Assembly: GCA_017433415.1 (NCBI GenBank)
Contig: JAFRHI010000027.1
Span: 20,615-84,614, forward strand
DNA from: Bacilli bacterium
Lineage (GTDB): Bacteria; Bacillota_I; Bacilli_A; RF39; UBA660
Length of the DNA stretch: 64,000 nucleotides
Reading direction: 5' to 3'
The translations under genes were made by a program, and so were the position numbers. Under the pieces are notes generated by a model. It saw only the letters and a list, made by a program, of their open reading frames with translations, ran no database searches and had not been told where the DNA came from. The stretch's first letter is position 1. Each line of letters opens with the position of its first letter. This document shows positions 5,473 to 24,444 of this stretch, piece after piece.

Positions 5473-6099
5473 ATGGATAGAATAGAACCTAGAATTCATG
5501 ATGAGATAAAAGATTATAAAGAAAAGTTTTATAATTTTACTTTAAGACAATGGATATTTGGAATTCTTATTCTTATAACTACTGTGCCTTTATATCTTGT
5601 GTTATCTCCAAAAGTTGGAAGTAATATTGCAGGATGGTTAGTTATATTAATTGCTATTCCTATTGGATTTGTTGGATTCATTCCAATACAAGGACTAAAT
5701 GCAGAAAGAATAATGTTTTTCTGGAAAAGAAACTACATTAATTTTGCTAAACCTATTCTTTATAAAACTGAAGAAGAAATTCTTCAAGAAAAGAATGGTA
5801 AAAAGAAAAAAACAGTAGTTAGTAATTTAAGTAAGAAAGAACAGAAAAATATTCAAAAGTTAGAAAAACAAAAACAAAAAGAACTTCAAAAGGAAAGAAA
5901 AAAACAAAGAGAAATTGCTCGTGCTAAAAAGAAATTTGGAATTAATAATTTAGAGAACACACAAAGTAATTTCTCATTAAGTCAAGAAGAAGCTCAAGTA
6001 TTACTTAAACTTGCAAGACAGGTAGTAGGGAAGGAGGAAAAAGAGATAAATGGTTCAGAAACAAAAGAAGATACGCCAACAGACAAAGAAGAAGCGTAA
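5473..6099 (+). CDS. PrgI-like membrane protein
   Basis: 208 aa; two TM helices after FTLRQW, then a Lys/Glu-rich tail; immediately precedes and overlaps the VirB4 gene. Confidence 0.45.
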   Translation: MDRIEPRIHDEIKDYKEKFYNFTLRQWIFGILILITTVPLYLVLSPKVGSNIAGWLVILIAIPIGFVGFIPIQGLNAERIMFFWKRNYINFAKPILYKTEEEILQEKNGKKKKTVVSNLSKKEQKNIQKLEKQKQKELQKERKKQREIARAKKKFGINNLENTQSNFSLSQEEAQVLLKLARQVVGKEEKEINGSETKEDTPTDKEEA

Positions 6100-8467: not shown

Positions 8468-8469
8468 AT

Positions 8470-10353
8470 ATGAATAATAATGCTGAAAGAGATACAAAGA
8501 AGGCGATTGATAGATTATCAACCGTTTCTTCTTCAGCATCATCTAATACATTAGATTTAGTAGATAAAGGTGCAAAGAAGTTATCAGATGTACGAGAAGA
8601 ACGAGAATTAAGGGCATTAGAAGGCGAGAATAATGACAATATAGAAGATACAGGTTCACGATTAAAAACTTCTGAAAATGTCCAAGAAACAGTAAATACA
8701 GAAGGTGTAGAAGTATCTGAAGAATCAACAAGTAGAATAAAAACTAATGTTAATGCTTCAGCATCTAAGGTTAATGTTGAAAAGAGTGAAGGAGTGAGCA
8801 AATCCGAAGCTACTCCTAAGACAAGTAAACTAAAAACTTCTGTTTCAAAAGCTGTTCAAAAGACTTTTAAATTTAATGATAATCAGGGAAAAATTTCTAA
8901 AGCAATGACAGTTGTTAGTAAAACTGGAAGCAAAGCTTCAAAAGCAGGTAGAACTGTTACAAGGACATCAAGAGAATTGAATAAAGCAATGAGTAATGAT
9001 GGAACAGGAACAGAGTATATAAATGATAAGATAGGTCGTAAAGTTAAAACTAAGAGTTATAAAATAGCGAAAAAAGGAGCTAAAAAACTACAAAAAAAAT
9101 TTAATCAAACACTTGGTAAAAAATTAGTTCAAGTTGCTAAGACAGTTTTAATTAAACTTTTAAAATTACTTATTTCAATATTTACAGCAGCAGCTGAATT
9201 TATAATTCCAGTTGCCTTAGTGGTTTTGATTATAGTAGCGATATGTTCAATATTTGGTAGTGGTTCATCTAATGATAAATCAATAACTGATTATTCATCT
9301 TATATGAAATCTGTTCAAGCAGAATACAATAAACAAGTGGATGATTGGAAACGAATGAATCCAACAGGTATTGTTGTAGGTGTTAAAGGTGAATATGGTC
9401 AAATTGATTGGAGAATACCACTTGCGATTATGCAATCAACAGGAGCTGAATTAAGTTTTGATTCTGATGAAAAGAGTTTACTTGATACTTTTAAATCAGC
9501 AGGATTATATGAAAAGCATGAAGTGGTATATCAAGAAGTAGAAGGCAGTAGTTCAACTCCAACACAATCAACTACATTTAACACACCGTCAACCACACCA
9601 CAATATAGTACAGAAATAACTCCAGCAAATAATCAAGCAAATACAATTCCTGTTTTAGTAATTACGAATGGTGTTTATGAAGACTATTTAGAATGGTTAA
9701 ATAAAAATTATTCTAAGATAGCAGATTTTAATAAAAAGAAAAAAGTAACAGATGGATCTGATACTTCGCTCTCATATGATCAAAAAGAAATGTTAGAATT
9801 ATTATATCAATCTGATGATTTTGCTGAATTATTAGGAAATGATTTTGTTACTCATACGCCTGTGTATGGTAAAAATGAAACAAAGGCAGATTTAAAGAGT
9901 GATAATTATAATTCTAAAAATACATTAGCAACATCTGGATTTAAAGGTCAATGTACTTGGTATTCATTTGGTAGGGCACTAGAAATATCAGGAATGAAGA
10001 TGCCTACTGGTAATGCTCAGACTTGGCTTACATCAGCCATTGCTATGGGATATAAAACAGGCACACAACCATCAACAAATTCTGTTGTGGTATTGATGGG
10101 ACACAAGTATGGTCATGTTGCTTATGTTGAAGCTTATGATGGAAAAACTATAACAATTAGTGAAGGAAATGTTGGTAATAAGTGTAGTAGTGATGATACT
10201 TGTAGTCAAGTTGAATATGCTAATGAACACGCTGAAGAATTAGTTAGAACCAAAACTTATTCTTCATTTGATGCTTATAGAAAAGCAAGTAAGAATAGTG
10301 GATTAACAGTAGTAGGATTTATATATTTAGATAAAGAAAAGGAGAAACAATGA
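8470..10353 (+). CDS. PrgK-like cell-wall hydrolase with C-terminal CHAP domain
   Basis: 627 aa; central TM; CHAP catalytic Cys (FKGQCTWYSFGRA) and His (GHKYGHVAYVEAYDG). Confidence 0.8.
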   Translation: MNNNAERDTKKAIDRLSTVSSSASSNTLDLVDKGAKKLSDVREERELRALEGENNDNIEDTGSRLKTSENVQETVNTEGVEVSEESTSRIKTNVNASASKVNVEKSEGVSKSEATPKTSKLKTSVSKAVQKTFKFNDNQGKISKAMTVVSKTGSKASKAGRTVTRTSRELNKAMSNDGTGTEYINDKIGRKVKTKSYKIAKKGAKKLQKKFNQTLGKKLVQVAKTVLIKLLKLLISIFTAAAEFIIPVALVVLIIVAICSIFGSGSSNDKSITDYSSYMKSVQAEYNKQVDDWKRMNPTGIVVGVKGEYGQIDWRIPLAIMQSTGAELSFDSDEKSLLDTFKSAGLYEKHEVVYQEVEGSSSTPTQSTTFNTPSTTPQYSTEITPANNQANTIPVLVITNGVYEDYLEWLNKNYSKIADFNKKKKVTDGSDTSLSYDQKEMLELLYQSDDFAELLGNDFVTHTPVYGKNETKADLKSDNYNSKNTLATSGFKGQCTWYSFGRALEISGMKMPTGNAQTWLTSAIAMGYKTGTQPSTNSVVVLMGHKYGHVAYVEAYDGKTITISEGNVGNKCSSDDTCSQVEYANEHAEELVRTKTYSSFDAYRKASKNSGLTVVGFIYLDKEKEKQ

Positions 10354-10766
10354 AAAAAGGAAAAATAATTTTTATAGCTGTTGTTGCAGTAATCTTTTGT
10401 ATAGCAGTTCCAGTAATTCTAAATAGAGGAGCAATTCAAAGAAAATTAGAAGCAATTAGACAAGAAGAAGCAGAAAAAGAAAAATACGAGGAAATGCTTA
10501 AAGCTGATGAAATTGCTCCTATATTAATTCTTTCTCAAGATAAAGTTATTATGTATCAAGGAGATGAACTTAATTATAAATCATTTATTAAAGAAGCATC
10601 TGACAACTTAGAAGGAGATTTAACAGATAAAGTTAAATATAACGAATTAGATATAAATCAAGTTGGTGAATTTGTTGTAGATTATGAAATAAGTGATACA
10701 GCACTTAATATAACAAAAGCAGAGCTTCAAGTAATTATTAAAGAAAAACCAAACTTTAAATACTAA
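10350..10766 (+). CDS. membrane-anchored DUF5011/Ig-like domain protein
   Basis: 138 aa; N-terminal TM; domain ...GDELNY...EGDLTDKVKY...VGEFVVDYEISD... is paralogous to the next gene; ATGA overlap with the upstream gene. Confidence 0.5.
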   Translation: MKKGKIIFIAVVAVIFCIAVPVILNRGAIQRKLEAIRQEEAEKEKYEEMLKADEIAPILILSQDKVIMYQGDELNYKSFIKEASDNLEGDLTDKVKYNELDINQVGEFVVDYEISDTALNITKAELQVIIKEKPNFKY

Positions 10767-10789
10767 AATAATGAAGGGAGAATTTTACT

Positions 10790-11548
10790 ATGAGTGATGA
10801 AGAATTATTGACTAAATATCGTGAATATAAGAAGAAGAGAATGATTATTATTTCAATTATTGTTCTCTTTTTTATATTGATAGCAGGTTTAATTTTATAT
10901 TTTCATTTTAATAATACTTCATCTACTGATTTAGAAGAAAAACCAAAAGAAGATGTAATAGTAAAGGATGAAGAAGCTCCAATTATTAAATTAAAAATAG
11001 AAGAATTAGAAGTTAAGAAAGGGGATGATATAAACTACATTGAATATGTAGAAAGTGTTGAAGACAAAGTTGATGGTGATTTAATAGAAGAATTAAAATA
11101 CGAAGAGATTGATACTTCAAATGTTGGAGAACAATCTATTGTATATAGTGTTAGTGATAAATCAGGAAACACAAGTCAAGCAGTATTAAAGGTTATTGTT
11201 AAAGAACAAGAAGCACCAGAAGAACCTGAAACTCCTGAAGAAAATAAATCTACTGAAAGTAGAAAAACTCCACCAAAAGAAGAATCTAATAATAAAAATA
11301 CAGGCACAACTCAGCAACCACAACAACAACCAAAACAAGAACAACCTAAGCAAGAAGAACCTCCAAAACAAGAAAATAATACTTCTGGAAAAGTGGTAAA
11401 ATATTTTCTTTTTTCTGATGGATATACAATGCTTAATGTAGCTGATGCTTGTGCTTCTGAATTAAAGAAAACAAATAGAACTGGTATGTGTAGTCCTATA
11501 CAGGATGAAAATGGTATCTATTTAGGAATGAAACTAGAAACAAATTAA
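10790..11548 (+). CDS. membrane-anchored DUF5011/Ig-like domain protein with P/Q/E-rich linker
   Basis: 252 aa; N-terminal TM; ...GDDINY...DGDLIEELKY...VGEQSIVYSVSDKSGN...; low-complexity PQ-rich segment. Confidence 0.5.
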   Translation: MSDEELLTKYREYKKKRMIIISIIVLFFILIAGLILYFHFNNTSSTDLEEKPKEDVIVKDEEAPIIKLKIEELEVKKGDDINYIEYVESVEDKVDGDLIEELKYEEIDTSNVGEQSIVYSVSDKSGNTSQAVLKVIVKEQEAPEEPETPEENKSTESRKTPPKEESNNKNTGTTQQPQQQPKQEQPKQEEPPKQENNTSGKVVKYFLFSDGYTMLNVADACASELKKTNRTGMCSPIQDENGIYLGMKLETN

Positions 11549-11850: not shown

Positions 11851-12066
11851 ATGAATAACGAATATATAAAAAAATTATTTGAAGAGAATAAAGAAAAGTT
11901 TGTTCAAGCAGGTATGGATATATTATCACCTGAGGATCTAAAAGATACAATGATTTCTTATATTACTTCAAATATGCAATATGATTTTGATATTGATGTT
12001 TTAGAAAGTAAATTATTTAATCAAGATACTATTGAGCAAGACTTAGAAGAAGATTTAGAGAAGTAA
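11851..12066 (+). CDS. hypothetical acidic protein (tail EEDLEK)
   Basis: 71 aa ORF, tightly packed after the previous gene. Confidence 0.5.
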   Translation: MNNEYIKKLFEENKEKFVQAGMDILSPEDLKDTMISYITSNMQYDFDIDVLESKLFNQDTIEQDLEEDLEK

Positions 12067-12083
12067 ATTTTTTTAGTTTAAAT

Positions 12084-12111
12084 GTCTACTATTGTGGACA
12101 AAAGAAAGGAT
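12084..12111 (+). promoter_or_regulatory. conserved 28-nt block, copy 1: imperfect palindrome GTCTAC-TATT-GTGGAC plus SD
   Basis: tgtctactattgtggacaaaagaaagga ends 8 nt before the ATG of the XRE gene; 27/28 identical to 15564..15591. Confidence 0.55.
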
Positions 12112-12119
12112 AAAAATTT

Positions 12120-12497
12120 ATGAAAAATAATTATAGTTTTATTGCTGAAGTATTTAGAAAAAGAAGAGTTGAATTAGGTTATAGTAAAAGAAAACTAGCA
12201 GCCATTATTGGAATTAGTGATACAGAAATATCAAGAATTGAACATGGTGAAAGAGAAAACTACAATTTAGTTACATTAATAAAATTATGTGAAGTTTTAA
12301 AAATAGACTTTATTCATTTGCTAGTATTAGCTGGTTATCTTCCATCAGATCAAATTAATAACGAGGATAATATAACAGAAATGGAATCATTGTTAGATGA
12401 TGAATGTGATGATATTAATGATGAAGAATGTGATGCTTGTCCATTATGTGAACCAATAGAAATTATTATAACTTTAGTATCTGGGAGGGATAAATAA
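12120..12497 (+). CDS. XRE-family helix-turn-helix transcriptional regulator
   Basis: 125 aa; HTH signature LGYSKRKLAAIIGISDTEISRIEHGER; acidic C-terminal part with C-x7-C-x2-C-x2-C. Confidence 0.75.
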   Translation: MKNNYSFIAEVFRKRRVELGYSKRKLAAIIGISDTEISRIEHGERENYNLVTLIKLCEVLKIDFIHLLVLAGYLPSDQINNEDNITEMESLLDDECDDINDEECDACPLCEPIEIIITLVSGRDK

Positions 12498-12835
12498 TGG
12501 ATATTTTAATAATTAGTAATGAGAATAATATTCTTCATATTTTTAATGATGGATATAAATGTGATTATACAATCTATAATTCAAAAGGTCATAACATGGA
12601 TGGTGGTGTATTAGATTTTGATGAAAAAGTATCTAATAAAGAATCAACAGATGAGATTATAAAAATGATTCAAGATAGATTTTTATTTAATGCACCATAT
12701 ACTTGTTTATCTGGTGATAAAGCACAAAATTTATTAGAGCTAATTGAAATGGAAGATTATAAAAATTTACAGCACCAAATAGAGAATAAGTCAGTAAATA
12801 ATAAAGAAGTAAATGATATAGAAATTAATATTTAA
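12497..12835 (+). CDS. hypothetical protein (tail NDIEINI)
   Basis: 112 aa; start overlaps the upstream stop (taATG). Confidence 0.5.
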   Translation: MDILIISNENNILHIFNDGYKCDYTIYNSKGHNMDGGVLDFDEKVSNKESTDEIIKMIQDRFLFNAPYTCLSGDKAQNLLELIEMEDYKNLQHQIENKSVNNKEVNDIEINI

Positions 12836-12852
12836 TAGAAAAGGAGAAAAAT

Positions 12853-13434
12853 ATGAGAAAATTTTATGATGATTTTATTCAACAAAAACCAAAAGAAATG
12901 TCAAAGACGCTTGAGGATATAGTTTTTAAATATACTAATCCTGAAACGCATCAACCAACAAAAGTTCCTGCTTCTCACTTTGAAAAAGAATTTGGACAAG
13001 AAGTAGAAAGGGCAATTAGCCAATCAGTTAATAGACAATTTTTAACAATTATGTATGGACAATTAAATGCTTTAAAGAAAGATAATGAACAACTTTTTTA
13101 TCAAGCTTTAATATGTATTGATAACAATTTAAATCCAAAAGATTTAAGACTATCAGAACAAATCGCAATAAATCATACTTATGATTATATTCAAGATAAA
13201 CAAAGAACTGAGAAAAAAGAATTCCATTTCTTCAATCAAGAAATATCTAATGAATATCATAGAGCAATCACAGATCCTAATATTCAAGCAGAGGCAATGG
13301 AAATATCTAATTTTCTTGAAAATCAAGAATCAATTGAATTAAATCGTATAAAACAGGATACTGAACAACAACTTAATTCAAATTCTAATAATGAATATGA
13401 AATGGAAAATGACGATATGGAAATGGATTATTAA
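12853..13434 (+). CDS. hypothetical protein (tail DDMEMDY)
   Basis: 193 aa; SD aaaggag. Confidence 0.5.
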   Translation: MRKFYDDFIQQKPKEMSKTLEDIVFKYTNPETHQPTKVPASHFEKEFGQEVERAISQSVNRQFLTIMYGQLNALKKDNEQLFYQALICIDNNLNPKDLRLSEQIAINHTYDYIQDKQRTEKKEFHFFNQEISNEYHRAITDPNIQAEAMEISNFLENQESIELNRIKQDTEQQLNSNSNNEYEMENDDMEMDY

Positions 13435-13455
13435 TTTATATGAAAGGAGATTTGT

Positions 13456-14472
13456 ATGTATAGTAAAATAGAAAACTTTTTATTAGATGTAAAGGCAAAT
13501 GATGAAGTCTTTGATTATCAACAAAAAGAGTATAAACTTCATAAAGAGCATTATGATGATAGATTTGATCTTTTATATATTAAAGAAAATCAAAACACTT
13601 TAAGACAAAATCGCAGTTATTATAATTTGTGTGGTTATTATGATAACAAAGACCATTGTATATATAATGCTGAAAATTTTTTAACTGATAAAATACAAGA
13701 AAGTGATGTTATAAGGTTTGACAGATTTGATAATTTAAATCAAAAAATTTTAAATGAAGTAAAACAATATATAAATGACTATTGTTTTGCTCACGAAAAA
13801 GATTTAACTAAATTAGCTCAAGAAAAATATGATACAAAGGATGATACAAGATTATTTGAATATAAAAAAGAAATTAATAAACTTTTTATTACTAAGGATA
13901 ATCCAACAGCAGATTTAACAATCTCAATCAGTAATTATGACATTGATTATGATAATAATATTATTTCATATTTAAATAATCCAAAAAAAGCAATAGAAGA
14001 AATATCTAAAAGATTTATTGAAAGAAACGGAAAAAGTTATGGATTAGAATTATTAATTTATCATGATAAGGTAAGCTATTTAAAAGAATTACAAGAGAAT
14101 AAAGATAATGCTTATGACAATATACATTCTTGTAAAAAAATTCTAGATGCTATTAAGTATGTAGATGCTAAAACAGTTAATATTACAATTCAATATGGTG
14201 AGAAGAGTTTAACATTTAAATATGAACTTGATGATTTAAGAAGTGCATTATCAAGTGGTAAAATGGAAACTTCAACTTATAATAATGGATATGGAATAGT
14301 ATCAGAATTTGTTAAAGCAAATGATCCAAATATTACTGATAAGAATCAATGGAGATGTCCATTTTCAATTCCTACAATTAGTTCTATAACAAGTGGTAGA
14401 AACGAAATATATTCCAAAGAAACCCCAAGCATTGAAAAAGAAGTAGAAGAAGATTTGGAAATAGAAATGTAA
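13456..14472 (+). CDS. hypothetical protein, paralog 1 of a tandem pair (tail EEDLEIEM)
   Basis: 338 aa; colinear similarity to 14494..15549, including an identical 19-aa block DAKTVNITIQYGEKSLTFK. Confidence 0.6.
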   Translation: MYSKIENFLLDVKANDEVFDYQQKEYKLHKEHYDDRFDLLYIKENQNTLRQNRSYYNLCGYYDNKDHCIYNAENFLTDKIQESDVIRFDRFDNLNQKILNEVKQYINDYCFAHEKDLTKLAQEKYDTKDDTRLFEYKKEINKLFITKDNPTADLTISISNYDIDYDNNIISYLNNPKKAIEEISKRFIERNGKSYGLELLIYHDKVSYLKELQENKDNAYDNIHSCKKILDAIKYVDAKTVNITIQYGEKSLTFKYELDDLRSALSSGKMETSTYNNGYGIVSEFVKANDPNITDKNQWRCPFSIPTISSITSGRNEIYSKETPSIEKEVEEDLEIEM

Positions 14473-14493
14473 TTTAAGGGGTGATAATTAAAT

Positions 14494-15549
14494 ATGGATA
14501 TAGAAAGATTTCTTTTAAACTCTGATGTTAATGATTTAATTTTTGAAGGTACTTATAATCATCAAAAAATTCATAAAGAAAAATTTGATGATAGATTTGT
14601 AGTTATATATACAAAAACAAATCATAGTTATTTATCACAAGATAATTATGAAGTAGCTGGATATTTGGATACAAAAGATAGAGTATTATATGATTGCACT
14701 TATTATCTAAATGAATTATTACCTAAAGAAAAGAATTTAATTAAACAAAGTTCTTTTGGCGTTTTAGGTGAAAAACTATGGAATGAAATAGAGGATTATA
14801 TTGAAAAATATTCTTTTGCAAATGAAGATAAACTAAAAGAAATCGCTACTGAAAAATATGACAATTTAGAAGATTATAGAAAAGAAGTTTACAAACGAGA
14901 TGTCAGGCAACAATTTGTTCAAGAAATGAAACCAATAATAAAACTTCAAAGATCATATTCCAGTTATGAGTTTACTAATCTTCCAGAGTATAGAGGTCAT
15001 TATATAGATGTGGAATATTTAAATAGTCCTCAAGAAACTGTTGAAAAATATTCTAATAAAATAATAGAAACTATTGATGATTATAGAAATAATAAAGAAA
15101 ATTTAGGATTAGAATTATTAATCTTTCGTGATAAAATCAAATATTTAGATGTTATAAAAGATAATAAAAATAATGAATTCAAGGATCTATATATTAAAAG
15201 AGAAATATATAATTCTATCAAAGATATAGATGCTAAGACAGTTAATATTACAATTCAATACGGTGAGAAGAGTTTAACATTTAAATTTGATTATAGTGCA
15301 TTAAAGAGAGATTTAACAAATGATAGTAAAGGTAGCTGTGGATATGGTAAATCGTATGAAGAAGTATCAAATTTTATTAAGGAGAATTCTGATAAAGAAG
15401 TGAATAGATGGACAGAAGACTTTAATTTTTCAAATATAACTTCTATTACCTATGGAAAGAATGAATTATATCATCACGATTTATCATCTTCAAAAAATAT
15501 GGAAGAAGATATTCAGGAACAAGAGGAAGACATTGAAATAGAAATGTAA
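14494..15549 (+). CDS. hypothetical protein, paralog 2 of a tandem pair (tail EEDIEIEM)
   Basis: 351 aa; see paralog 1. Confidence 0.6.
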   Translation: MDIERFLLNSDVNDLIFEGTYNHQKIHKEKFDDRFVVIYTKTNHSYLSQDNYEVAGYLDTKDRVLYDCTYYLNELLPKEKNLIKQSSFGVLGEKLWNEIEDYIEKYSFANEDKLKEIATEKYDNLEDYRKEVYKRDVRQQFVQEMKPIIKLQRSYSSYEFTNLPEYRGHYIDVEYLNSPQETVEKYSNKIIETIDDYRNNKENLGLELLIFRDKIKYLDVIKDNKNNEFKDLYIKREIYNSIKDIDAKTVNITIQYGEKSLTFKFDYSALKRDLTNDSKGSCGYGKSYEEVSNFIKENSDKEVNRWTEDFNFSNITSITYGKNELYHHDLSSSKNMEEDIQEQEEDIEIEM

Positions 15550-15563
15550 TATTTTACTCAAGG

Positions 15564-15591
15564 TGTCTACTATTGTGGACTAAAGAAAGGA
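15564..15591 (+). promoter_or_regulatory. conserved 28-nt block, copy 2
   Basis: tgtctactattgtggactaaagaaagga ends 7 nt before the TTG start at 15599. Confidence 0.55.
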
Positions 15592-15598
15592 GGATTTA

Positions 15599-15979
15599 TT
15601 GATAAATAAAGAGAATAAGTGGTTAGATTTTATTGCAGGAATAAATACAATCATGGTATCTAATGAAGAAGAATTTAATAAGTTTCGGAAATTCTTAGAT
15701 GATTTGGGTATAGGAAAAATATTAAATGATTATAGAACATTTTCAGATTGGCAGCATTTATCTGAAATAAATAATAAGAATCCAAATTATATTGTTTTTG
15801 AATTTCAAATAACAAAAGGTTTGACATTTGGATATACAAAAGAATCATCTAAAGATTGGTTTGGCGTAGAACCATTAAATGTTAAAGATTTGGAATCGTT
15901 TTATAAGAATAGTAAATTATTAAGTATGAAATTTGAAAAGAAAAATGAATTAGATTTAGATGAAGAAATAGAAAAATAG
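15599..15979 (+). CDS. hypothetical protein (TTG start; tail LDEEIEK)
   Basis: 126 aa; SD aggagga upstream of the TTG. Confidence 0.5.
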   Translation: MINKENKWLDFIAGINTIMVSNEEEFNKFRKFLDDLGIGKILNDYRTFSDWQHLSEINNKNPNYIVFEFQITKGLTFGYTKESSKDWFGVEPLNVKDLESFYKNSKLLSMKFEKKNELDLDEEIEK

Positions 15980-15995
15980 AAAAGGAGAAATTTAT

Positions 15996-16367
15996 ATGTT
16001 TAATCAAACTTTACTTGTAGGTAGAATTGTAGCAAATCCAGAAATAAGACAAACAGAAGCAGGAAAAAATTATGCTAGTATTACAATAGCAGTTCCAAAA
16101 CCATACACCAATGAAGAAGGAGTTCATGAAGCTAATTTTATAGATTTAACAGCGTGGAATGATAGGGTAGTAAAAAAATCAGATCATTTATTAAAGGGTG
16201 ATTTAGTTCTTATCGAAGCATCAATACAAACTAGATTAGTAGAAAAAGATGGACAAAAAATTAAATATACTGATATTGTTGCTGATAATATTAATTATTT
16301 AAATCATAGCAAAAACCAAGACAAAACATTACAAAACGATGAGGTTGAAGAGGAGATGGATATATGA
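15996..16367 (+). CDS. ssb: single-stranded DNA-binding protein
   Basis: 123 aa; OB-fold N-terminus MFNQTLLVGRIVANPEIRQTEAGKNYASITIAV; acidic C-terminal tip EVEEEMDI. Confidence 0.8.
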   Translation: MFNQTLLVGRIVANPEIRQTEAGKNYASITIAVPKPYTNEEGVHEANFIDLTAWNDRVVKKSDHLLKGDLVLIEASIQTRLVEKDGQKIKYTDIVADNINYLNHSKNQDKTLQNDEVEEEMDI

Positions 16368-16567
16368 TAATTAGAGATGATATTGAACTTGAAATAGTAT
16401 ATTCAAAAGAAGAAAAAATTGTTTATATTGGTACACCTTCATCTTCTGGTGCTAAGTATAAATGCGAAACAATTGATGATTTAAAAAAATCAATTGATAG
16501 TTATATTGAAAGCTATGTAGAATATGATAAAATTCCAACACATGAAGATATTGAAATAGATAAATAA
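16364..16567 (+). CDS. hypothetical protein (tail EDIEIDK)
   Basis: 67 aa; ATGA overlap with ssb; GGAG SD lies inside the ssb tail. Confidence 0.5.
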   Translation: MIIRDDIELEIVYSKEEKIVYIGTPSSSGAKYKCETIDDLKKSIDSYIESYVEYDKIPTHEDIEIDK

Positions 16568-16570
16568 TTA

Positions 16571-17128
16571 ATGAAAACTAGAATTTTTATTGATATGGAT
16601 GGTACTCTTGCTGAATGGAGAGATATAAAATCAAATAGTGAACTTTATGAAAAAGGTTATTATGAATCTTTAAAACCTAATAATTTTTTGTTAGAAGAAG
16701 TAAAGAATCTTATTAAAGAGGGAAAGGATATTTATATTCTTTCTTCTTTTTTAAGTGATAGTAATTATGCTCTAAAAGAAAAAAATCTTTGGTTAAATAA
16801 ATATCTTCCAGAGTTACCAATTCAAAAAAGAATTTTTGTTCCTTATGGTGATGTTAAATATAAGTATTTACCAAGTAAGATAACAGCGTTTGATTATTTA
16901 GTTGATGATCATACAAAAAATCTTCTTGATTGGAAAGATGCAGGAGGAACTGGAATAAAGTTTTTAAACGGAATAAATCATATTAAAGGAGTGTGGCAAG
17001 GATTACTTTTAAGAGAAGATGAAGATATATCTAAGAATTTTAACTGGATTCTTGATAATTGTTTTAAAGAACCTATAAAGTCTTTTGAATTTCAAAATTT
17101 AGAAGAAGATTTAGAAGTGGAAATATGA
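16571..17128 (+). CDS. HAD-superfamily 5'(3')-deoxyribonucleotidase (NT5C-like)
   Basis: 185 aa; HAD motif I FIDMDGTLAEW; length and layout resemble NT5C-type enzymes; tail EEDLEVEI. Confidence 0.6.
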   Translation: MKTRIFIDMDGTLAEWRDIKSNSELYEKGYYESLKPNNFLLEEVKNLIKEGKDIYILSSFLSDSNYALKEKNLWLNKYLPELPIQKRIFVPYGDVKYKYLPSKITAFDYLVDDHTKNLLDWKDAGGTGIKFLNGINHIKGVWQGLLLREDEDISKNFNWILDNCFKEPIKSFEFQNLEEDLEVEI

Positions 17129-17340
17129 AAGGAGAATATAAATTGAATAAAGCATTAGAAAAGAAAATTGAAAAATTAGAAGGTTTAAAAAAGAAGGAAT
17201 TAGAAAAAATAGATGCGATTAATGTTGTAATATCTGACTATGATAAGCAATTAAAAGTTTTATATGATTATAAAAAGCAACAAGAAAAAATTTATCAAAT
17301 GCAACAAGATCTTGATACCAAAATTTTAGGAGATAAATAA
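17125..17340 (+). CDS. hypothetical coiled-coil protein
   Basis: 71 aa, Lys/Glu heptad-like sequence; ATGA overlap upstream. An in-frame TTG at 17143 after aaaggag is an alternative start. Confidence 0.45.
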   Translation: MKGEYKLNKALEKKIEKLEGLKKKELEKIDAINVVISDYDKQLKVLYDYKKQQEKIYQMQQDLDTKILGDK

Positions 17341-18284
17341 TGAATTTAGTTCGTGAAAAAATATCTCCGAACGGATATAGAAGATTAAATGTTGATATAA
17401 ATATTCAAGAAAATGAAGAACCTAACCACGATAATGTGTTTTGGTATGGAGGAGAAGTAGCAAGTATAAAGTCTTCAGAAGGAGAATATAAAATTGTTGC
17501 TAGAGGAATAGTATCGTGTAATTTAATTGCAAAAAAAGATTATATAATGCCTGATGGTGAAGAAATAAAAGCAGGTAATATAATAGCTCATGTTAAAGAT
17601 AAAAATGAAGTAGGAGCATTTAAAAAAGAAATGTCATTATATATAAAAAATGACAAAGAATTATCTGATATTATATATAACAAACACAAATTATTTAAAT
17701 TAGAAGTTGATAATAATAATTGGTTTGAATTGTCTTTTTATAATAATGAAGGAGAAATTGAGTATGATGATGTTATGAGTTCATTGTATTTAAAAGATGC
17801 AGTAGAAGAAGTTTTAGATATGATTTGGGAACAAAATAAAGATAATAAATTATATTCAATTTACTGTCGTGTAGCAAATTCAGATGGTGGAACATTAAAT
17901 GCAATAAAAAGCCAAATCGATAAATGTTTATATTCAATCAATCAAAATGCTAAAGGAAATACAGAACTAATTAGAATTTATTTTGATAGATGTTCTGGAT
18001 TAAAGAATCATGAAAAAGCATTTGGAAAAGCATTAGAAGATATAAAGAATAATAAGACACTAGATTTATATTCTGTTAATATTTCACGATTATCAAGAGA
18101 TGTAAAAAGAATGATAGATATAAGGGAAATATTAAAAGATAGTGAATCAGATATATTTGTTGTTAATGAAAATGCTTATGTATATAAAGAATTATTTAAT
18201 CAAATTACCATTCCAATATTTTATGAAATGACAGATAAAGAAATAGCTGAAGAACCTGAAATGGATGAAATAGAATATGAGTAA
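17340..18284 (+). CDS. unknown N-terminal domain fused to a resolvase-like (serine recombinase catalytic) domain lacking the nucleophile Ser
   Basis: 314 aa. The C-terminal half aligns by eye with gamma-delta resolvase: YCRVANSD (vs Y-x-RVS-T), FDRCSG (vs D-K-ASG), ISRLSRD (vs LDRLGRD). The catalytic Ser position is Ala. Confidence 0.6.
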   Translation: MNLVREKISPNGYRRLNVDINIQENEEPNHDNVFWYGGEVASIKSSEGEYKIVARGIVSCNLIAKKDYIMPDGEEIKAGNIIAHVKDKNEVGAFKKEMSLYIKNDKELSDIIYNKHKLFKLEVDNNNWFELSFYNNEGEIEYDDVMSSLYLKDAVEEVLDMIWEQNKDNKLYSIYCRVANSDGGTLNAIKSQIDKCLYSINQNAKGNTELIRIYFDRCSGLKNHEKAFGKALEDIKNNKTLDLYSVNISRLSRDVKRMIDIREILKDSESDIFVVNENAYVYKELFNQITIPIFYEMTDKEIAEEPEMDEIEYE

Positions 18285-19224
18285 ACTTCCTAAAACAAGA
18301 CAAGAATTAATTGATATGTATATCAAAAGTTTAGAGGAAGGAAATATTCCATGGGAGCAAATGTGGAAGACTTCCATTCCTGAAAATGCTATTTCTGGAA
18401 TAAAATATAGAGGTGTAAATAATTTATATTTATCATACATTGCATATAAAAGAGGATATAAAGATAATAGATGGATAACATTTAATCAAATGGGAAAAAA
18501 GCATTGGAAGTTTATTAATTCTGCAAAAGGTCAAGGTGTACCAGTAGAATGGTGGGCAATGAAAAATAAAAGAGATAATAAGATAATTAGTTTTGAAGAA
18601 TATAATAAAATAATAGAAGAAAATCCAGATAAAGAAAAAGAATTTAAAATAAGTAAAATGAGTTATACAGTTTTTAATGGTGATTTAGTTGATGGATTAG
18701 TTAATGATAAAGTAGAACAAAAACAAGAAATTATTAGCAATGATTATATTCAAAATATTATTGATAATATTGGTGTAGGATATAAAGAAGAAGGAGAAGA
18801 AGCTTATTATAGTCCTTCTAAAGATATGGTTGTTTTACCACCATCAAATAGTTTCAAAACAAGCAATTCTTATTATGCTACACAGCTTCATGAACTTGCT
18901 CATTCAACAGGACATGAAACAAGATTAGCAAGAAATCTTAAAGATCATTTTGGAACAGAGGGTTATGCTAAAGAAGAATTAAGAGCAGAGATTAGTTCTT
19001 CTTTTTTAATGCAAAAGTTTCATCTAGAAGAAGATACAAGACATTTAAATAATCATAAAAGTTATGTTAAAAACTGGTTAGAAATATTAAAAAACAATCC
19101 ACAAGAATTATTTAATGCAATAACTGATGCTAATAAAATTGTTGATTATTTAGAAGAAAATAGTATTAAAAAAGAGAAAAATCAAACCATTGATTTAGAA
19201 CAAGAAATGGAGATGGATATATGA
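18277..19224 (+). CDS. ardC: ArdC-like antirestriction protein (ssDNA-binding N-domain + zincin metalloprotease domain)
   Basis: 315 aa; N-terminal ...EEGNIPWEQMW...YRGVNNLYL...; C-terminal HExxH QLHELAHSTGHE. Confidence 0.8.
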   Translation: MSKLPKTRQELIDMYIKSLEEGNIPWEQMWKTSIPENAISGIKYRGVNNLYLSYIAYKRGYKDNRWITFNQMGKKHWKFINSAKGQGVPVEWWAMKNKRDNKIISFEEYNKIIEENPDKEKEFKISKMSYTVFNGDLVDGLVNDKVEQKQEIISNDYIQNIIDNIGVGYKEEGEEAYYSPSKDMVVLPPSNSFKTSNSYYATQLHELAHSTGHETRLARNLKDHFGTEGYAKEELRAEISSSFLMQKFHLEEDTRHLNNHKSYVKNWLEILKNNPQELFNAITDANKIVDYLEENSIKKEKNQTIDLEQEMEMDI

Positions 19225-19562
19225 TTGAAGAATTTAATAAAATAAAAGAATATTCGGCATCATTTAATAATTATAATATTTATGATTATTGTTTCTTCAT
19301 AGGATTAACAAATGTAAAAGAAAATATACCTAATGATGAACTTGAATTATTAATAAAAAAATGTGGAGAAGTTCATAGTGATTATACAGATCCAATTGAA
19401 TTAGGTCAATCACTTGCAAACGAAATATATACAGAAAAAAATATAACAATAGATGATATAAAGTCATTGACGGTGGATGAATTCTATAACTGGTACGATG
19501 ATGGAAGAGAAGTTGGAAATCCAATTGAAATAGATTCTTTAGATGAAAGGGAGATTGATTAA
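19221..19562 (+). CDS. hypothetical protein (tail LDEREID)
   Basis: 113 aa; ATGA overlap with ardC. Confidence 0.5.
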   Translation: MIEEFNKIKEYSASFNNYNIYDYCFFIGLTNVKENIPNDELELLIKKCGEVHSDYTDPIELGQSLANEIYTEKNITIDDIKSLTVDEFYNWYDDGREVGNPIEIDSLDEREID

Positions 19563-19563
19563 T

Positions 19564-19896
19564 ATGAATGTATTCTCTATATATAAAGCAATGCCAGAAG
19601 TTCATAGAAATAATTTAAAATCTTATTATATTCTTGAAGGAATATATGATTGTTTTCCTGATATAGCTGAAGAAGATGCTAAATTTATTCATAACATTTC
19701 ATTAAAAGTTGAAAATGAAAATATAAATCCTTATTCAATTTCGCATTATTTGACAGATCATTATACAAGAGGAAATATAACAAAAGAAGATTTAGAAAAA
19801 GCATCCTCTGGTGAAATTTGTGAAGCAGTATATTTTAATAATTTAGATTATATGAATTTAGAAAAAGAGTTAAATGAGGAGGAAAAAGAGATATGA
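19564..19896 (+). CDS. hypothetical protein (tail EEEKEI)
   Basis: Track ORF starts at 19543. The ATG at 19564 follows SD agggag and sits 1 nt after the upstream stop. Weakly similar to the preceding ORF (NITKEDLEKAS vs NITIDDIKSLT). Confidence 0.5.
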   Translation: MNVFSIYKAMPEVHRNNLKSYYILEGIYDCFPDIAEEDAKFIHNISLKVENENINPYSISHYLTDHYTRGNITKEDLEKASSGEICEAVYFNNLDYMNLEKELNEEEKEI

Positions 19897-20291
19897 AATC
19901 ATATAAATCAGATAGAAAAAATAATAAAAAAGCGATTAGAAAAATTCAAAAATTAATTGATTCTTCAAAATTAAATCCTTTTATTTTATTTCATTATACA
20001 GCTCTAAAAGAATCAGAATTAGAAAGTAATAGAGAATCAATGGTAAGTTTAATTAAATATAATAATAAGGTTATTTCACAATTAAAAGAAGAAATAAAAG
20101 ATAAAAATATTTGCGAAGTTCATAAAGAAATTGTTAAAAAATATATTGATGAATTGGAGTATTCTAATGGAACTTCTAAGGAAGTTATTAGAATAATAAA
20201 TCTTAAAAAAAGAGAATTTTATCATAAAAAATTACAAAAAAATTACAATAAATTTTTCAAAAAAAATACTAAACTGTCAGCGACTATTTAG
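19893..20291 (+). CDS. hypothetical basic protein adjacent to the candidate oriT
   Basis: 132 aa, Lys-rich; ATGA overlap upstream. Confidence 0.5.
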   Translation: MKSYKSDRKNNKKAIRKIQKLIDSSKLNPFILFHYTALKESELESNRESMVSLIKYNNKVISQLKEEIKDKNICEVHKEIVKKYIDELEYSNGTSKEVIRIINLKKREFYHKKLQKNYNKFFKKNTKLSATI

Positions 20292-20406
20292 TGGGTTTTA
20301 GGGATATTCCCTAACAAGCTTAGGGGTGTGTCAACACCATGCTTGATAGATTATATTTCTATACTCTGTAAGGGGTACTTTCTACTGAAGTTAGAAAGGA
20401 GCAAAT
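20292..20406. other. candidate origin of transfer (oriT)
   Basis: 115-nt, relatively GC-richer intergenic region just upstream of the relaxosome genes. Hairpins: ttaggga-tat-tccctaa (20298-20314); aagc..ggtgt-gtca-acacc..gctt (20316-20344); ctttcta-N7-tagaaag (20378-20398). Confidence 0.45.
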
Positions 20407-20967
20407 ATGGAATTTAAAGTTCAGGAAAAGTGGAGAGTACAGCAAAAATTTAATATGAGTGATAAGCAGATAGATATGGCAATAAAAAAGATGATAAAAA
20501 GACATCCGTTAGAAGAATGGATAGATGAGAGAATAGCATCAAATGGTCAAAGAGTTGTATATTTTAAATTAGAGTTTGTTGAATGGTTAAGAGATGTATA
20601 TTCAAATGGAAAAAAGTATTATTTAGATTTGGATATAGAATTTTTCAAAAGACAAATTTTACGATTAGAAAAAGAACTAGGTATCCCTCATAAAGAGCTA
20701 GAGTATAATCCTATGACGGTTAGAGAATTGTCTGTTTTTTTTGATAGAAGCATTAATACAATATATGTAGCATTAATTCGTATGAGAAAAAATAATTTTT
20801 CTCAACAATATTTAGATGATGGAAAAGTTTTAGTTTCAAAAGAAGGAGTTAAATGGTTAAGTGAAAATTATTTTCGTACTTCATATTTAGAAAATTTAGA
20901 ATTATATAAATTAGATCTTCAAGAAAAGAAAAGGATAATGTATGAACAATCAAGACGAAAAATATAA
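20407..20967 (+). CDS. putative DNA-binding protein, possible relaxosome accessory factor
   Basis: 186 aa; two internally similar segments (...GQRVVYFKLEFVEWLRDVY / ...DGKVLVSKEGVKWLSENYF); HTH-like MTVRELSVFFDRSINTIYVALIRMRK; position between oriT and mobC-like gene. Confidence 0.35.
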   Translation: MEFKVQEKWRVQQKFNMSDKQIDMAIKKMIKRHPLEEWIDERIASNGQRVVYFKLEFVEWLRDVYSNGKKYYLDLDIEFFKRQILRLEKELGIPHKELEYNPMTVRELSVFFDRSINTIYVALIRMRKNNFSQQYLDDGKVLVSKEGVKWLSENYFRTSYLENLELYKLDLQEKKRIMYEQSRRKI

Positions 20968-21742
20968 CAAATTAAGAAGACAAAAGATTAATGTGATGCT
21001 TAATGAAGAAGAACGAAAAATAATTAAAGAAAAAGCTATTAAGTATGGCTTTGGAGATTGCTTAGCTGAATATATAAGAGCAGCCTGTATATATGAAAAT
21101 ATTTATATTGAGGATGTTCATGGAAAAGAAAAAGTTTGCAACAAGGTTAGTGAATATATAAAAGAATTGAGAGAAATATTAAATGCTCAAAGAAAATTAA
21201 TGAAAAATGTTTTTCTGACAAAAGATGATATTGATAAAATAAAAAATCAAAATCAACAAATCATAGAAAAGATAGGCAGATTATCAAGAATAATAATTTC
21301 TTCATTGTCTGTTGTTTCGGAAAAGAAAATTCAACAAAGAATTAATATGATAGAAAAATATGATTCAGATAAACTAATACCTAAGATACAAATAGCTGGT
21401 GAATGGGGATTGGTGTTAAGACCTTCTAATTTATATCATCCTAATGAACCAGCTATATATATTGTTTTTCTACCAGAATACTATGATGAAATTGAAATCA
21501 ATAATTTTGATCCAGATAAGTTTAAAGAAAAAATTGATAACTATCGTCATATTGCTATGAAAAAGGAATTATATATTTCTATATATCATTTCAATGACAA
21601 ATTAAGATATGGTATTGTGATGCCTTTTGTAGATAAAGAATCAGCAACAAAATATGCAGAAGAAATGGAAGCAGATTATGTCTATGATTTATATAGTCAG
21701 CAAGTTGAAATGGATGGTGATATTTATTCCAGCAACAGCTAG
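20942..21742 (+). CDS. MobC-like relaxosome protein with long C-terminal extension
   Basis: 266 aa; N-terminal RRQKINVMLNEEERKIIKEKAIKYGFGDCLAEYIRAA resembles the MobC/RHH mobilisation signature; directly upstream of the relaxase. Confidence 0.55.
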   Translation: MNNQDEKYNKLRRQKINVMLNEEERKIIKEKAIKYGFGDCLAEYIRAACIYENIYIEDVHGKEKVCNKVSEYIKELREILNAQRKLMKNVFLTKDDIDKIKNQNQQIIEKIGRLSRIIISSLSVVSEKKIQQRINMIEKYDSDKLIPKIQIAGEWGLVLRPSNLYHPNEPAIYIVFLPEYYDEIEINNFDPDKFKEKIDNYRHIAMKKELYISIYHFNDKLRYGIVMPFVDKESATKYAEEMEADYVYDLYSQQVEMDGDIYSSNS

Positions 21743-23402
21743 ATGGTCAGTGCACGGAGTGAAGGGAAGAATTGATTGTATTAACTATATTAAAAATCCA
21801 GATAAAACAAAAGACGGAACTTTAGTAACTGGAATAAACTGTTCTTCAGAATTTGCAGCTTATGAGATGCAGATAAATAGTCAAAAATTCCGTATTGAAG
21901 AAGACAATGATAGTAGAACTTGCTATCATGCTTATCAATCATTTGATCCGAAAGAGAAAAATTTAACTCCAGAAGAAGTGCATCAAATGGGAATAGAACT
22001 GGCTAAGAGATTATACCCTGATTTTCAAGTAGTAGTATGTACTCATGTAGACCATTTGCATTTGCATAATCACTTTTGCATATCAGCAGTAAATCTAAAA
22101 GGTAGAAAACTAGAAGACAGATTATCAAATCCTATTGAAGGTTTATATGGATTAAGAGATGTAAGTGATCAGATTGCATTAGAACACGGACTTCATATAA
22201 TTAAAGACGCTCCTAAGATTGGACATTATCATAAGAATAAATACTTATATGATATTGCTAACAAATCTTGGAGGCAACAAATTATAGAAATGATTGATAC
22301 ATTAAAAGATAGATGCTATTCATTTGATGAGCTATTAGAACAACTTGCTTTAGAAGGATATTTAATTAAGCATGGTAAAAATATTCGTATAAAACCTTAT
22401 GGCAAAGAAAGATATGTAACAATGAAAATATTAGGTGATGATTATAGTGAAGAAGCATTAAAACTATTTTTTAGAGAAAAGAGAAAAAATCAAAAGGTTA
22501 TTAATTTTGGAGAATATAAATTAAATGTGAATGATAGTGATATTTTAAATATATATGATCAATTAGCAAGACTATCAAAACATTCAGTTTTATATACTAT
22601 GCAAGATTTGGATTTAAATTCAGATTATTACAAATATTATAATTCTCGCTATTTAGAAGTTAAGCGTTATCATCAATTAGTAGATACTATTAATTTTTTA
22701 AATAATCACGAAATATACAATTATGATTCATTAGAAAATCAAATAGACCAAATAAAGAATGAAATTGAAGAAAGGGAAGAAGAATATCATTCTTTATTAT
22801 CTAAACACGAAACATTACAATTAAGAGTTCCATTATGCAATTTATATATTAAATATTTAGATGATTATAATGGATACTTAGAACAACAAGATATATATCC
22901 AGTTGATGCTGAACTACCTAATGAAGTAAAAGCTTTTTTAGATGTAAAAGCAGAATTGAATGTTGATACTCCTGAAGAAGTAGAAGATATTATCTCAGAA
23001 GCGAATAAGATGAAAATTGATATGAATAAAAAATATGCTTATTTATCTTATTTAAAAAACAAAGCTAGTGAATTAGAGAAAATAAAAGGAATTTCATTAG
23101 AGAACGAAAAAGGATATATTAAAAGTATATCTATTAGTAAAAAGATGATTGATGAAAAACGCTCATCATCAGATGAATATTGTGTCCGTATTCCATATAG
23201 TGAATACTTTTTTTATGTTCCTAAAAAAAGTGTTGCATGGATTAGTTATGACACTAGAGGAATTATTTATTTGGTAGATGATAAAGAGTATATATTATAT
23301 GATCAGTATGATAAAGAAGTAGAAAGAGTAAATGGAGAAGAAGTGGAAAAAATATCACAGGAAGAAAAGAAAAAAGTAAACGAATATTATAAAGGAAAAT
23401 AA
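21714..23402 (+). CDS. MobA/VirD2-family conjugative relaxase
   Basis: His-rich motif HVDHLHLHNHFCISAVN; CYHAYQSFDP motif. The track ORF begins at 21654 inside the upstream gene; ATG 21714 (MVIFIPATARW...) is more plausible. Confidence 0.8.
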   Translation: MVIFIPATARWSVHGVKGRIDCINYIKNPDKTKDGTLVTGINCSSEFAAYEMQINSQKFRIEEDNDSRTCYHAYQSFDPKEKNLTPEEVHQMGIELAKRLYPDFQVVVCTHVDHLHLHNHFCISAVNLKGRKLEDRLSNPIEGLYGLRDVSDQIALEHGLHIIKDAPKIGHYHKNKYLYDIANKSWRQQIIEMIDTLKDRCYSFDELLEQLALEGYLIKHGKNIRIKPYGKERYVTMKILGDDYSEEALKLFFREKRKNQKVINFGEYKLNVNDSDILNIYDQLARLSKHSVLYTMQDLDLNSDYYKYYNSRYLEVKRYHQLVDTINFLNNHEIYNYDSLENQIDQIKNEIEEREEEYHSLLSKHETLQLRVPLCNLYIKYLDDYNGYLEQQDIYPVDAELPNEVKAFLDVKAELNVDTPEEVEDIISEANKMKIDMNKKYAYLSYLKNKASELEKIKGISLENEKGYIKSISISKKMIDEKRSSSDEYCVRIPYSEYFFYVPKKSVAWISYDTRGIIYLVDDKEYILYDQYDKEVERVNGEEVEKISQEEKKKVNEYYKGK

Positions 23403-23416
23403 GGAGATGATAAAAA

Positions 23417-24157
23417 TTGAGTATTGCTAAAAAAATGAATTATTATTTTAAAGGATTAAAAGAACCACCAAAGTTTGTATATAACGCTGAAGATAGAAAA
23501 CTATTTGAAGAATACATTAAAGAGAATATAGGCAATTTTGATAAAGTTTATCATGAATTATATTCTCCAGATGTTCATTTAGATATTTTAATCATTCCAC
23601 CAGATTCTAAAAATAATTTTTATAAATTAGTTACAAGAGGATTAGGTGCTTATAAAATGAATGTTCCAGATGTTATAAAGGATGAAAGATTAGATAGAGC
23701 AGAATTAATTTTATATTTACCACCAGATTGGAATTTTGATTTTGAAAAAGAAGAAAATGGATGGGTTATAAGTCAAATAAAGAATATTGCTAGAACTCCT
23801 ATAATGGAAGATTCTTGGATAGGATTTGGTCATACTTTTTCTGAAGATGAGAAGGCAACAATACCATTTGCAAGTAATACAAAGTTTTCTAGTACACTTT
23901 TGCTCAACGCTTTAAATAAAGATTACGAGTTTTTAGATTTAACATTACCTAGTAAAGGTAGAATTAATTTTTATCAAATATTTCCTTTATATAAGGAAGA
24001 AATGCTATATAAACAACAAAATGGTGTAGAAGCATTGATGGAATTATTTTCCGATGAAGATCTTATTCCTGTTGTAAATATTAGTAGGAAAAACTACTGT
24101 GATGACTTAATAAATAAAAATATAGAAAAAGAAGAGGAGAACGAAATAGAGATATGA
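23417..24157 (+). CDS. SUFU-like (suppressor-of-fused family) immunity-type protein
   Basis: 246 aa; TTG start after aaggag; ...YKLVTRGLGAYKMNVP...AELILYLPPDWNFD...WVISQIKNIARTP... resembles bacterial SUFU-like domains; tail EENEIEI. Confidence 0.5.
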   Translation: MSIAKKMNYYFKGLKEPPKFVYNAEDRKLFEEYIKENIGNFDKVYHELYSPDVHLDILIIPPDSKNNFYKLVTRGLGAYKMNVPDVIKDERLDRAELILYLPPDWNFDFEKEENGWVISQIKNIARTPIMEDSWIGFGHTFSEDEKATIPFASNTKFSSTLLLNALNKDYEFLDLTLPSKGRINFYQIFPLYKEEMLYKQQNGVEALMELFSDEDLIPVVNISRKNYCDDLINKNIEKEEENEIEI

Positions 24158-24444
24158 AATATTTAGATAACGAATTAGATTTAATTGATCATATTCTATA
24201 TAAACACAAAATTTATGATATAAATCTAGAATATGATGATGACAATAATATAATTGCTTATGATGAAGATAATAAATGGAAAGGCAAGGAATTCTATGAT
24301 TTCTTATATGATGAAGTCTTTGTTTATAATAGTCATGGCATGGTTGATTTATTAACTAGAGAAGAATTAAGACATTTAGATGAATATAGAAAGAAATATG
24401 AAATATCGAATGAAAAAGAACTAAATGAGGAGATAGAAAAATAA
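24154..24444 (+). CDS. hypothetical protein (tail NEEIEK)
   Basis: 96 aa; ATGA overlap upstream. Confidence 0.5.
   Translation: MKYLDNELDLIDHILYKHKIYDINLEYDDDNNIIAYDEDNKWKGKEFYDFLYDEVFVYNSHGMVDLLTREELRHLDEYRKKYEISNEKELNEEIEK

Follow-up and report, generated by a model that had tools for sequence, protein, structure and literature searches.

A probable pseudo-recombinase encoded next to ardC in an integrative conjugative element of an uncultured gut Bacilli bacterium

The gene at 17340-18284 on the forward strand of a 64,000-nucleotide stretch of an uncultured Bacilli bacterium (contig JAFRHI010000027.1 of GenBank assembly GCA_017433415.1; this whole stretch is called the window below) belongs to an integrative conjugative element (ICE) and encodes a protein of 314 amino acids plus a stop codon. 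Its product is very probably a catalytically dead pseudo-recombinase. The protein has the fold of a resolvase, yet it is without the three features that define the enzyme: the nucleophile, helix alpha-E and a DNA-binding domain. We call it the dead-resolvase protein. As a whole, our reading of it as a non-catalytic, two-module protein of an establishment operon of the conjugative element has about an even chance of being right. The gene is present as a single copy in its own 1.21-Mb host genome.

A resolvase-like domain had been noticed by eye at residues ~170-290 in a sequence-only reading of this DNA, and profile and structure searches support it. Pfam Resolvase (PF00239) matches residues 174-293 over profile positions 3-116 of 145 with an E-value of 4.1e-11 and 43.6 bits, where the curated cut-off is 23.3 bits. 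Integrase and invertase families of PHROGs match the protein at 9e-10 and 6e-9, and an NCBIfam scan gave sub-threshold recombinase matches only. The structure prediction proposed in that reading was made with AlphaFold2 (AF2) from 19 homologues and yielded a resolvase catalytic core. The model of the 314-residue protein has a predicted local distance difference test score (pLDDT) of 86 and a predicted template modelling score (pTM) of 0.80, and is confident except at residues 291-314. Foldseek aligned it to the Protein Data Bank (PDB) entry 3g13 with an E-value of 1e-4, followed by 3bvp, 3pkz, 5c34, 6dgc and 1zr2, and about 30 further resolvase chains were matched besides 3g13. The matches of the C-terminal half in PDB and BFVD were to serine-recombinase catalytic domains only, those in PDB being 3g13, TP901-1, Sin, IS607 TnpA and gamma-delta. 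The domain thus shares the alpha/beta core of the PF00239 proteins (3g13 of a Clostridioides difficile conjugative transposon, TP901-1 3bvp, Sin and gamma-delta/Tn3), in the common order beta1-alphaA-beta2-alphaB-beta3-alphaD-beta4. It differs from them in having Ala179 for Ser, a truncated alpha-E and neither an HTH (helix-turn-helix) nor a recombinase/zinc-ribbon domain, and in lying C-terminal to an unrelated domain and on its own branch of the tree.

The replacement of the nucleophile was confirmed by two kinds of alignment. phmmer places YCRVAnsd of the protein opposite YCRVStds of 3g13. A MAFFT alignment of 86 catalytic-domain segments, which combined the dead-resolvase family with true recombinases from an exhaustive profile search, has Ser in the nucleophile column of every true large serine recombinase, including the window's own, and Ala179 in the window protein. 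The conserved arginines noted by eye are indeed kept: Y175, R177, D216, S219-G220, R250 and R253 all align, and these equivalents of Y6, R8, D36, S39-G40, R68 and R71 are conserved as in serine recombinases. The crucial residues of Tn3 resolvase are Y6, R8, S10, D36, R68 and R71 according to Olorunniji and Stark (PMC2794168); five of these six are retained in the window protein and the sole loss is the nucleophile. No homologue departs from Y175 or R177, and R250 and R253 hardly vary. A sequencing error at Ala179 was ruled out, as independent assemblies carry Ala (GCA or GCT, the latter in P0001, P0020 and L016) or Asp (GAT) at this position.

The other two losses lie at the C-terminal end. 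Alpha-E is truncated: beta-4 is followed by about 20 residues, a proline among them, which are modelled as short helices of low confidence, and then by an acidic tail whose pLDDT stays under 50. Only 24 residues lie between the resolvase domain and the end of the protein. No DNA-binding domain (HTH_7, Recombinase or zinc ribbon) was matched by Pfam or NCBIfam, and the 24-residue end is disordered and acidic, which agrees with the earlier remark that no HTH follows. All three domains are present in the window's true recombinase at 25474-27114. With the nucleophile, most of alpha-E and the DNA-binding domains lost, the protein should therefore perform no strand cutting or exchange of the recombinase type. 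The earlier description, of a recombinase fold that is probably inactive and is joined to an N-terminal domain of no known family, has held up, on the branch-wide loss of the nucleophile described below as well as on the truncated alpha-E and the missing DNA-binding domain. Laboratory mutants of Tn3/gamma-delta resolvase of the S10A type (PMC2794168), which bind their substrate but do not cleave it, resemble the natural protein in that the nucleophile is removed and the Arg/Tyr pocket is kept. These mutants retain alpha-E and the HTH and can bind and synapse res sites, whereas the natural dead protein has neither element and is therefore not expected to bind DNA site-specifically in the manner of res binding.

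It is very improbable that the protein has kept recombinase or nuclease activity by means of a different nucleophile, either Ser181 or a residue supplied in trans. Such an enzyme would make sense of the five retained catalytic residues, and the Ser two residues downstream, which the sequence-only reading had pointed out, is present in the window protein. As an alternative nucleophile, however, this Ser is not conserved: the orthologue column at position 181 reads S/V/T/N/F/L, with V in most close orthologues, and Ser181 was ruled out as a displaced nucleophile because of this. A Ser in the canonical column does occur in one subgroup of the family, but the column is A/D/N/G across the rest, the subgroup nests inside Ala, Gly and Asp lineages, and its S-G motif has changed to P-S. 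The lack of a DNA-binding domain and of alpha-E also speaks against activity.

A word-indexed search found 44 homologues, all of which have a Pfam Resolvase match or are truncated, and the exhaustive profile search found 16 representatives at E <1e-30 together with many partial relatives. Where the source names them, family members are currently annotated as 'recombinase family protein'. Matches of the fused family to species genomes were all (7/7) in metagenome-assembled genomes of uncultured gut 'Bacilli' or 'Tenericutes'. No match was found among PLSDB plasmids by tblastn with the whole protein or with the stand-alone N-terminal domain. A maximum-likelihood (ML) tree has a branch with support of 100/96 that separates every nucleophile-less domain from 21 true recombinase domains. 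Ala occupies the nucleophile column in most deep branches, Asp in most close orthologues, and Asn or Gly in others; Ser is found only in the 468-aa subgroup. The conservation of Ala in orthologues, which the sequence-only reading proposed to check, is therefore partial: over the deep branches no residue is commoner, yet Ala is not fixed. Since the Ser-bearing subgroup is nested among Ala, Asp and Gly lineages in this tree, a single loss of Ser in the family is not contradicted, and the Ser of the subgroup looks secondary. The true recombinases closest to the dead domain are proteins of 1100-1350 aa (P0061, P0063, P0067, P0069 and P0091) in which two large serine recombinase units, both complete, follow one another in a single polypeptide, each with an intact YCRVS-type motif.

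The sequences also bear on whether the gene is a functionless, decaying recombinase remnant carried along in its operon, which we think improbable. Its three losses could be read this way, and its rate of evolution exceeds that of ArdC, the relaxase and o17125 (the product of the gene upstream) and is the highest among the block proteins compared. Faster evolution fits a conflict-facing role and equally fits weaker constraint. A remnant, however, would hardly keep an intact reading frame in at least 44 homologues down to 38% identity, an invariant Y175/R177 with nearly invariant R250/R253, a fold modelled by AF2 with high confidence, and a dead domain that persists in other settings too, in a gene of its own and in duplicate. 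Nor do substitution rates suggest decay. The ratio of non-synonymous to synonymous substitutions (dN/dS) against the 87%-identical orthologue (L011) is 0.16 for the whole ORF, 0.10 for the C-terminal domain and 0.23 for the N-terminal domain; it is 0.24-0.33 in two further close pairs, and the C-terminal domain ranges from 0.10 to 0.33 over the close pairs. These values come from close pairs only, distant pairs being saturated in this AT-rich DNA. At the sequence level the gene is under purifying selection, with no decay.

The dead domain is one of two separable modules. Residues 1-165 form an N-terminal domain that is the best-conserved part of the family alignment, with pLDDT mostly above 88, and carries the motifs NVFWYGG, ARG, VKDKN and NNNWFE in the window protein. 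It had been described from sequence as a domain of no recognised family, and it still is: no match was found in Pfam, NCBIfam, PHROGs or PADLOC, in a PDB-sequence profile search, or with Foldseek against PDB and BFVD. The domain belongs to a broad and widespread family of stand-alone acidic mobile-element proteins of 140-190 aa, which have in common the motifs WYGG, A-x-GD, VKDK-x-N-x-G-x-F, YIKND-x-EL and NNNWWE, and it occurs fused to DUF3848 (P0053), to GNAT (P0165) and to the dead resolvase. It was present in 3 of 399 sampled genomes of the host's class, and phage records matched it once, on an unannotated 6-kb contig. The resolvase core, for its part, is found as a stand-alone gene of 145 aa (P0065 and P0071) and, in variants of 449-468 aa (e.g. 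P0034), twice, flanking the N-terminal domain. In the three-domain variants (L001 8001-9407, L019 9476-10900, and L018) the front resolvase-like copy is more degenerate, with YAKSG for YxRxS, and the C-terminal copy has the canonical-column Ser. One locus (L010) has a dead-resolvase gene with no N-terminal domain within 15 kb. Separate but adjacent genes for the two modules were not found in 13 metagenome loci with stand-alone N-terminal-domain genes.

Neighbours of these stand-alone genes, 104 proteins on metagenome contigs, include DUF3846, DUF4313, DUF1281_C, topoisomerase, SNF2 and Macro proteins, which are typical accessory families of mobile elements of Firmicutes. An independent element in another family of the same class (G089) has an N-terminal-domain gene flanked by a DarA_C gene and an ArdC-N/peptidase gene. 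At this locus (L025, G089:C2:64000-79500, on a 97.9-kb contig, C2) the stretch 4890-11227 holds the DarA_C gene, the N-terminal-domain gene at 7274-7963, an insertion of IS605 OrfB/TnpB type at 8302-9543 and the ArdC-N plus Peptidase_M78 gene at 10196-11227.

The sequence-only reading had suggested, among other things, that the protein could act on the recombinase of its element. As a regulator of the large serine recombinase it could be a recombination directionality factor (RDF) for excision, or a dominant-negative subunit that poisons the recombinase of the element itself or those of its rivals. The dead domain is homologous to the recombinase catalytic domain, a large serine recombinase is present in every locus that reaches the element end, and no RDF was identified for the window element. 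The protein also resembles RDFs such as SprB of SPbeta and CD1234 of the C. difficile skin element (PMC5025042) in being an accessory protein on an element with a large serine recombinase, and the adjacent 71-aa basic protein, o17125, has the size of known RDFs. The dead-resolvase protein itself is much larger than these. The two proteins nevertheless evolve independently. Between the window and a related element (G401) the dead-resolvase protein is 87% identical and the terminal recombinase 27%, with ArdC at 94% and the relaxase at 89% in the same backbone comparison (L014); conversely, between G402 and G404 the recombinase is 98% identical and the dead-resolvase protein 67%. With 22-26% identity over short stretches, the dead domain is no recent copy of the cognate catalytic domain, and it clusters apart from it in the tree. 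Alpha-E, which is truncated here, makes all known resolvase subunit interfaces. The gene itself belongs to the ssb-ardC operon beside the candidate oriT, where it is translationally coupled to ardC, and is separated by 7 kb from that of the recombinase. The identity mismatch, the missing alpha-E and the gene position therefore disfavour an RDF or dominant-negative role, which we consider unlikely; the dead-resolvase protein is probably not specific to the element's recombinase. Large serine recombinases are engaged by their known RDFs at the C-terminal DNA-binding and coiled-coil region, not at the catalytic core, and no RDF is known to have a resolvase fold. The wider suggestions of the sequence-only reading, binding to DNA structures or targeting of other proteins, may still apply.

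These sequences show that the integration module has been swapped between elements whose transfer and leading-region backbones are near-identical, so their target sites may differ. The terminal recombinases (window 25474-27114; G401:C33, G402:C6, G404:C4 and G405:C1, at loci L021-L024) fall into subfamilies of ~546 aa with 'YIRLS' and ~620 aa with 'YCRVS'. The host assembly (G000, with an estimated completeness of 91.5%) has at least three large serine recombinase genes (on C22, C3 and C16).

The first 27 kb of the window, which has a GC content of 26%, is the right part of the ICE. Its genes for a VirD4-type coupling protein, VirB6-like protein, VirB4-type ATPase and CHAP hydrolase are followed by a block of small genes, a NikA-like gene, a MobA/VirD2-type relaxase, a SUFU-like gene, a sortase and the large serine recombinase; past the ICE end are the chromosomal genes uppS, cdsA, rseP and priA. 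The dead-resolvase gene is within a run of co-directional, tightly packed genes, and its neighbours are ssb (15996), an NT5C-type nucleotidase (16571), the gene for o17125 (17125) and ardC (18277). Coordinates of the gene, its parts and its immediate neighbours are listed in the table.

Table. Features of the dead-resolvase gene and the genes overlapping it (window positions)
Feature	Position	Strand	Remarks
o17125	17125..17340	+	71-aa basic coiled-coil gene; stop overlaps the start of the dead-resolvase ORF
Whole dead-resolvase ORF	17340..18284	+	N-terminal domain of no recognised family, dead resolvase core and acidic tail
N-terminal domain, residues 1-165	17340..17834	+	acidic, beta-rich; pI 4.7, net charge -12
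C-terminal serine-recombinase catalytic core, residues 170-290	17847..18209	+	without nucleophile; pI 8.7
Active-site motif Y175-C-R177-V-A179	17862..17876	+	Ala179 codon GCA (17874-17876) in place of Ser
S249-R250-L-S-R253-D254 motif	18084..18101	+	equivalent of D67-R68...R71 of Tn3/gamma-delta resolvase; both Arg kept
Alpha-E remnant (with proline) and disordered acidic tail ...EEPEMDEIEYE	18210..18281	+	net charge -9; pLDDT 38-45
ardC	18277..19224	+	ArdC-N ssDNA-binding domain and zincin-like metallopeptidase; 8-nt overlap with the end of the dead-resolvase ORF

We compared 16 loci with a dead-resolvase gene. The order ssb, NT5C, o17125, dead-resolvase gene and ardC, followed further on by the NikA-like gene, relaxase, SUFU-like gene, sortase and large serine recombinase, recurs among them and holds down to 35-48% identity of the dead-resolvase protein to that of the window. 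ardC, identified in the window by its Pfam matches (ArdcN, 2.3e-18; MPTase-PolyVal, 1e-38), is directly downstream of the dead-resolvase gene in 13 of the 16 loci, and both stand-alone dead-resolvase genes (P0071 and P0065) also lie directly before ardC. A homologue of o17125 was found by phmmer directly upstream in all 14 related loci (14/14); at one locus (L052) no gene is called between NT5C and the dead-resolvase gene. o17125 may be the real partner of the dead resolvase. It has a pI of 9.0 and no Pfam match, and its identity to its homologues is 65-97%, compared with 35-87% for the dead-resolvase protein. NT5C occurs in a short form of 175-185 aa, as in the window, and in a long form of 459-468 aa (L001 6609-7988, L006 1277-2665, L020 8536-9942 and L052 243-1649), whose ~280 extra residues have no Pfam match.

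Both junctions of the dead-resolvase gene overlap. Upstream there is a TAATG overlap with AGGAG 6 nt before it, and downstream the ATG of ardC lies inside the last codons of the dead-resolvase gene (TATGAGTAA). No terminator-like site was found between 11 and 21 kb of the window. Judging from these junctions and the absence of terminators, o17125, the dead-resolvase gene and ardC are therefore very probably co-translated. The ssb-ardC block lies on one strand and points at a gap ahead of the NikA-like and relaxase genes, the only one of any size there; the dead-resolvase gene is 2-3 kb from the candidate origin of transfer (oriT) in this gap, at ~20.3 kb.

This arrangement suggests a role early in conjugation. 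With its genes directed at the gap and the candidate oriT ahead of the relaxosome genes, the ssb-ardC block would be the leading region of the element, and if the candidate oriT is correct the dead-resolvase gene would be among the first genes to enter a recipient. ArdC is an establishment and anti-restriction gene of Gram-negative and Gram-positive plasmids (PMC7213743, PMC6294495). The dead-resolvase protein would then most likely be a two-module, non-catalytic protein of an early 'establishment' operon. Once in the recipient it would bind or scaffold other components and so, tied to ArdC, help in protecting and establishing the incoming DNA. A ligand would bind in the retained Arg/Tyr pocket, which would no longer be a catalytic site. 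An establishment or anti-restriction role linked to ArdC, which is suggested by gene neighbourhood, falls slightly short of an even chance.

Several observations weigh against this reading. The proposed function is based on gene neighbourhood, and all related loci belong to one element family, so that the conserved synteny is partly shared ancestry and not independent. ardC is absent downstream at three of the 16 loci (L001, L018 and L019), all with three-domain variants, and 300-360-aa proteins without Pfam match fill the slot there. No general link to ardC was seen for stand-alone N-terminal-domain genes among the 104 neighbour proteins, and PADLOC gave no match for the dead-resolvase protein. 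The oriT and the 'leading' polarity are both candidate assignments. Finally, the nucleophile column tolerates Asp, and an Asp beside three Arg could fill the pocket, so that the arginines might be kept for stability or salt bridges and not for phosphate binding.

A more specific proposal, which we regard as unlikely, is that the protein is a substrate trap. Its Tyr/Arg3/Asp phosphate pocket would bind a phosphate-bearing ligand in the recipient without reacting, and together with ArdC and NT5C would shield the entering DNA. The ligand might be a nick or a 5' end on the incoming strand, the junction between relaxase and DNA, or a nucleotide that acts as an immune signal. If true, a site-specific recombinase would for the first time have given rise to a pseudoenzyme of anti-defence or establishment.

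The acidic tail raises the question of a different partner. Its type (...EMDEIEYE in the window) is conserved in all homologues, among them stand-alone modules of other contigs (EPEMEME, DEMEKE, DIDYDFEY), and because it is kept even where the stop does not overlap ardC or another next gene, it is more than a by-product of an overlapping start. Similar tails are found on about 15 neighbouring proteins, and the mildly basic pocket of the C-terminal domain could bind acidic peptides. The protein might on this evidence be a conjugation adaptor or passenger, with the tail as a recognition tag for the coupling protein or a common partner, and be delivered to the recipient or help to deliver others there. 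Conservation of the tail is, however, partly forced by the overlapping ardC start (TATGAG), and ribosome-binding sequences that lie within upstream genes could explain part of the acidic ends; we judge this role improbable. E/D-rich C-terminal tails ending in I, M or Y are seen on many proteins of the block at window positions 11851-24444, and the same acidic tail on stand-alone modules of other contigs (P0071, P0144, P0135, P0162 and P0059).

Returning to the proposed establishment protein, its closest parallels among known systems are in position and in architecture. ArdC-type genes (R388 ArdC, PMC7213743; pLS20/p576 ardC, PMC6294495) share with the dead-resolvase gene the operon and orientation near a candidate oriT, and the two are translationally coupled in 13 of the 16 loci. 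The proteins have no sequence or fold relationship, and the ArdC paper does not mention a partner gene of the dead-resolvase type. In architecture the family resembles the polyvalent-protein domains of Iyer et al. 2017 (PMC5512222): the N-terminal domain is modular, alone or fused, the dead resolvase stands alone or is present as a single or doubled domain, and polyvalent-type neighbours (MPTase-PolyVal peptidase, DUF3846, DUF4314 and LPD16) are found at its loci. It differs from polyvalent proteins in having only two or three domains, and neither module is mentioned in PMC5512222. Searches of a limited full-text collection yielded no account of a serine-recombinase domain without its nucleophile or of an ArdC partner of this type. 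Unlike RDFs, the dead-resolvase protein shows no co-variation with the recombinase and is encoded away from it.

Serine recombinases are treated as enzymes, and the dead-resolvase proteins are a distinct, selected group of them that is unable to recombine DNA. Counting or mining of serine integrases by PF00239 miscounts these proteins as recombinases. The dead domains sit apart from the integrase, in the block expected to enter a new host first, and are coupled to ArdC. A functional link between the two would provide a handle on the mode of action of ArdC and would add a class of pseudoenzymes to the establishment and anti-defence repertoire of the conjugative elements of gut Firmicutes.

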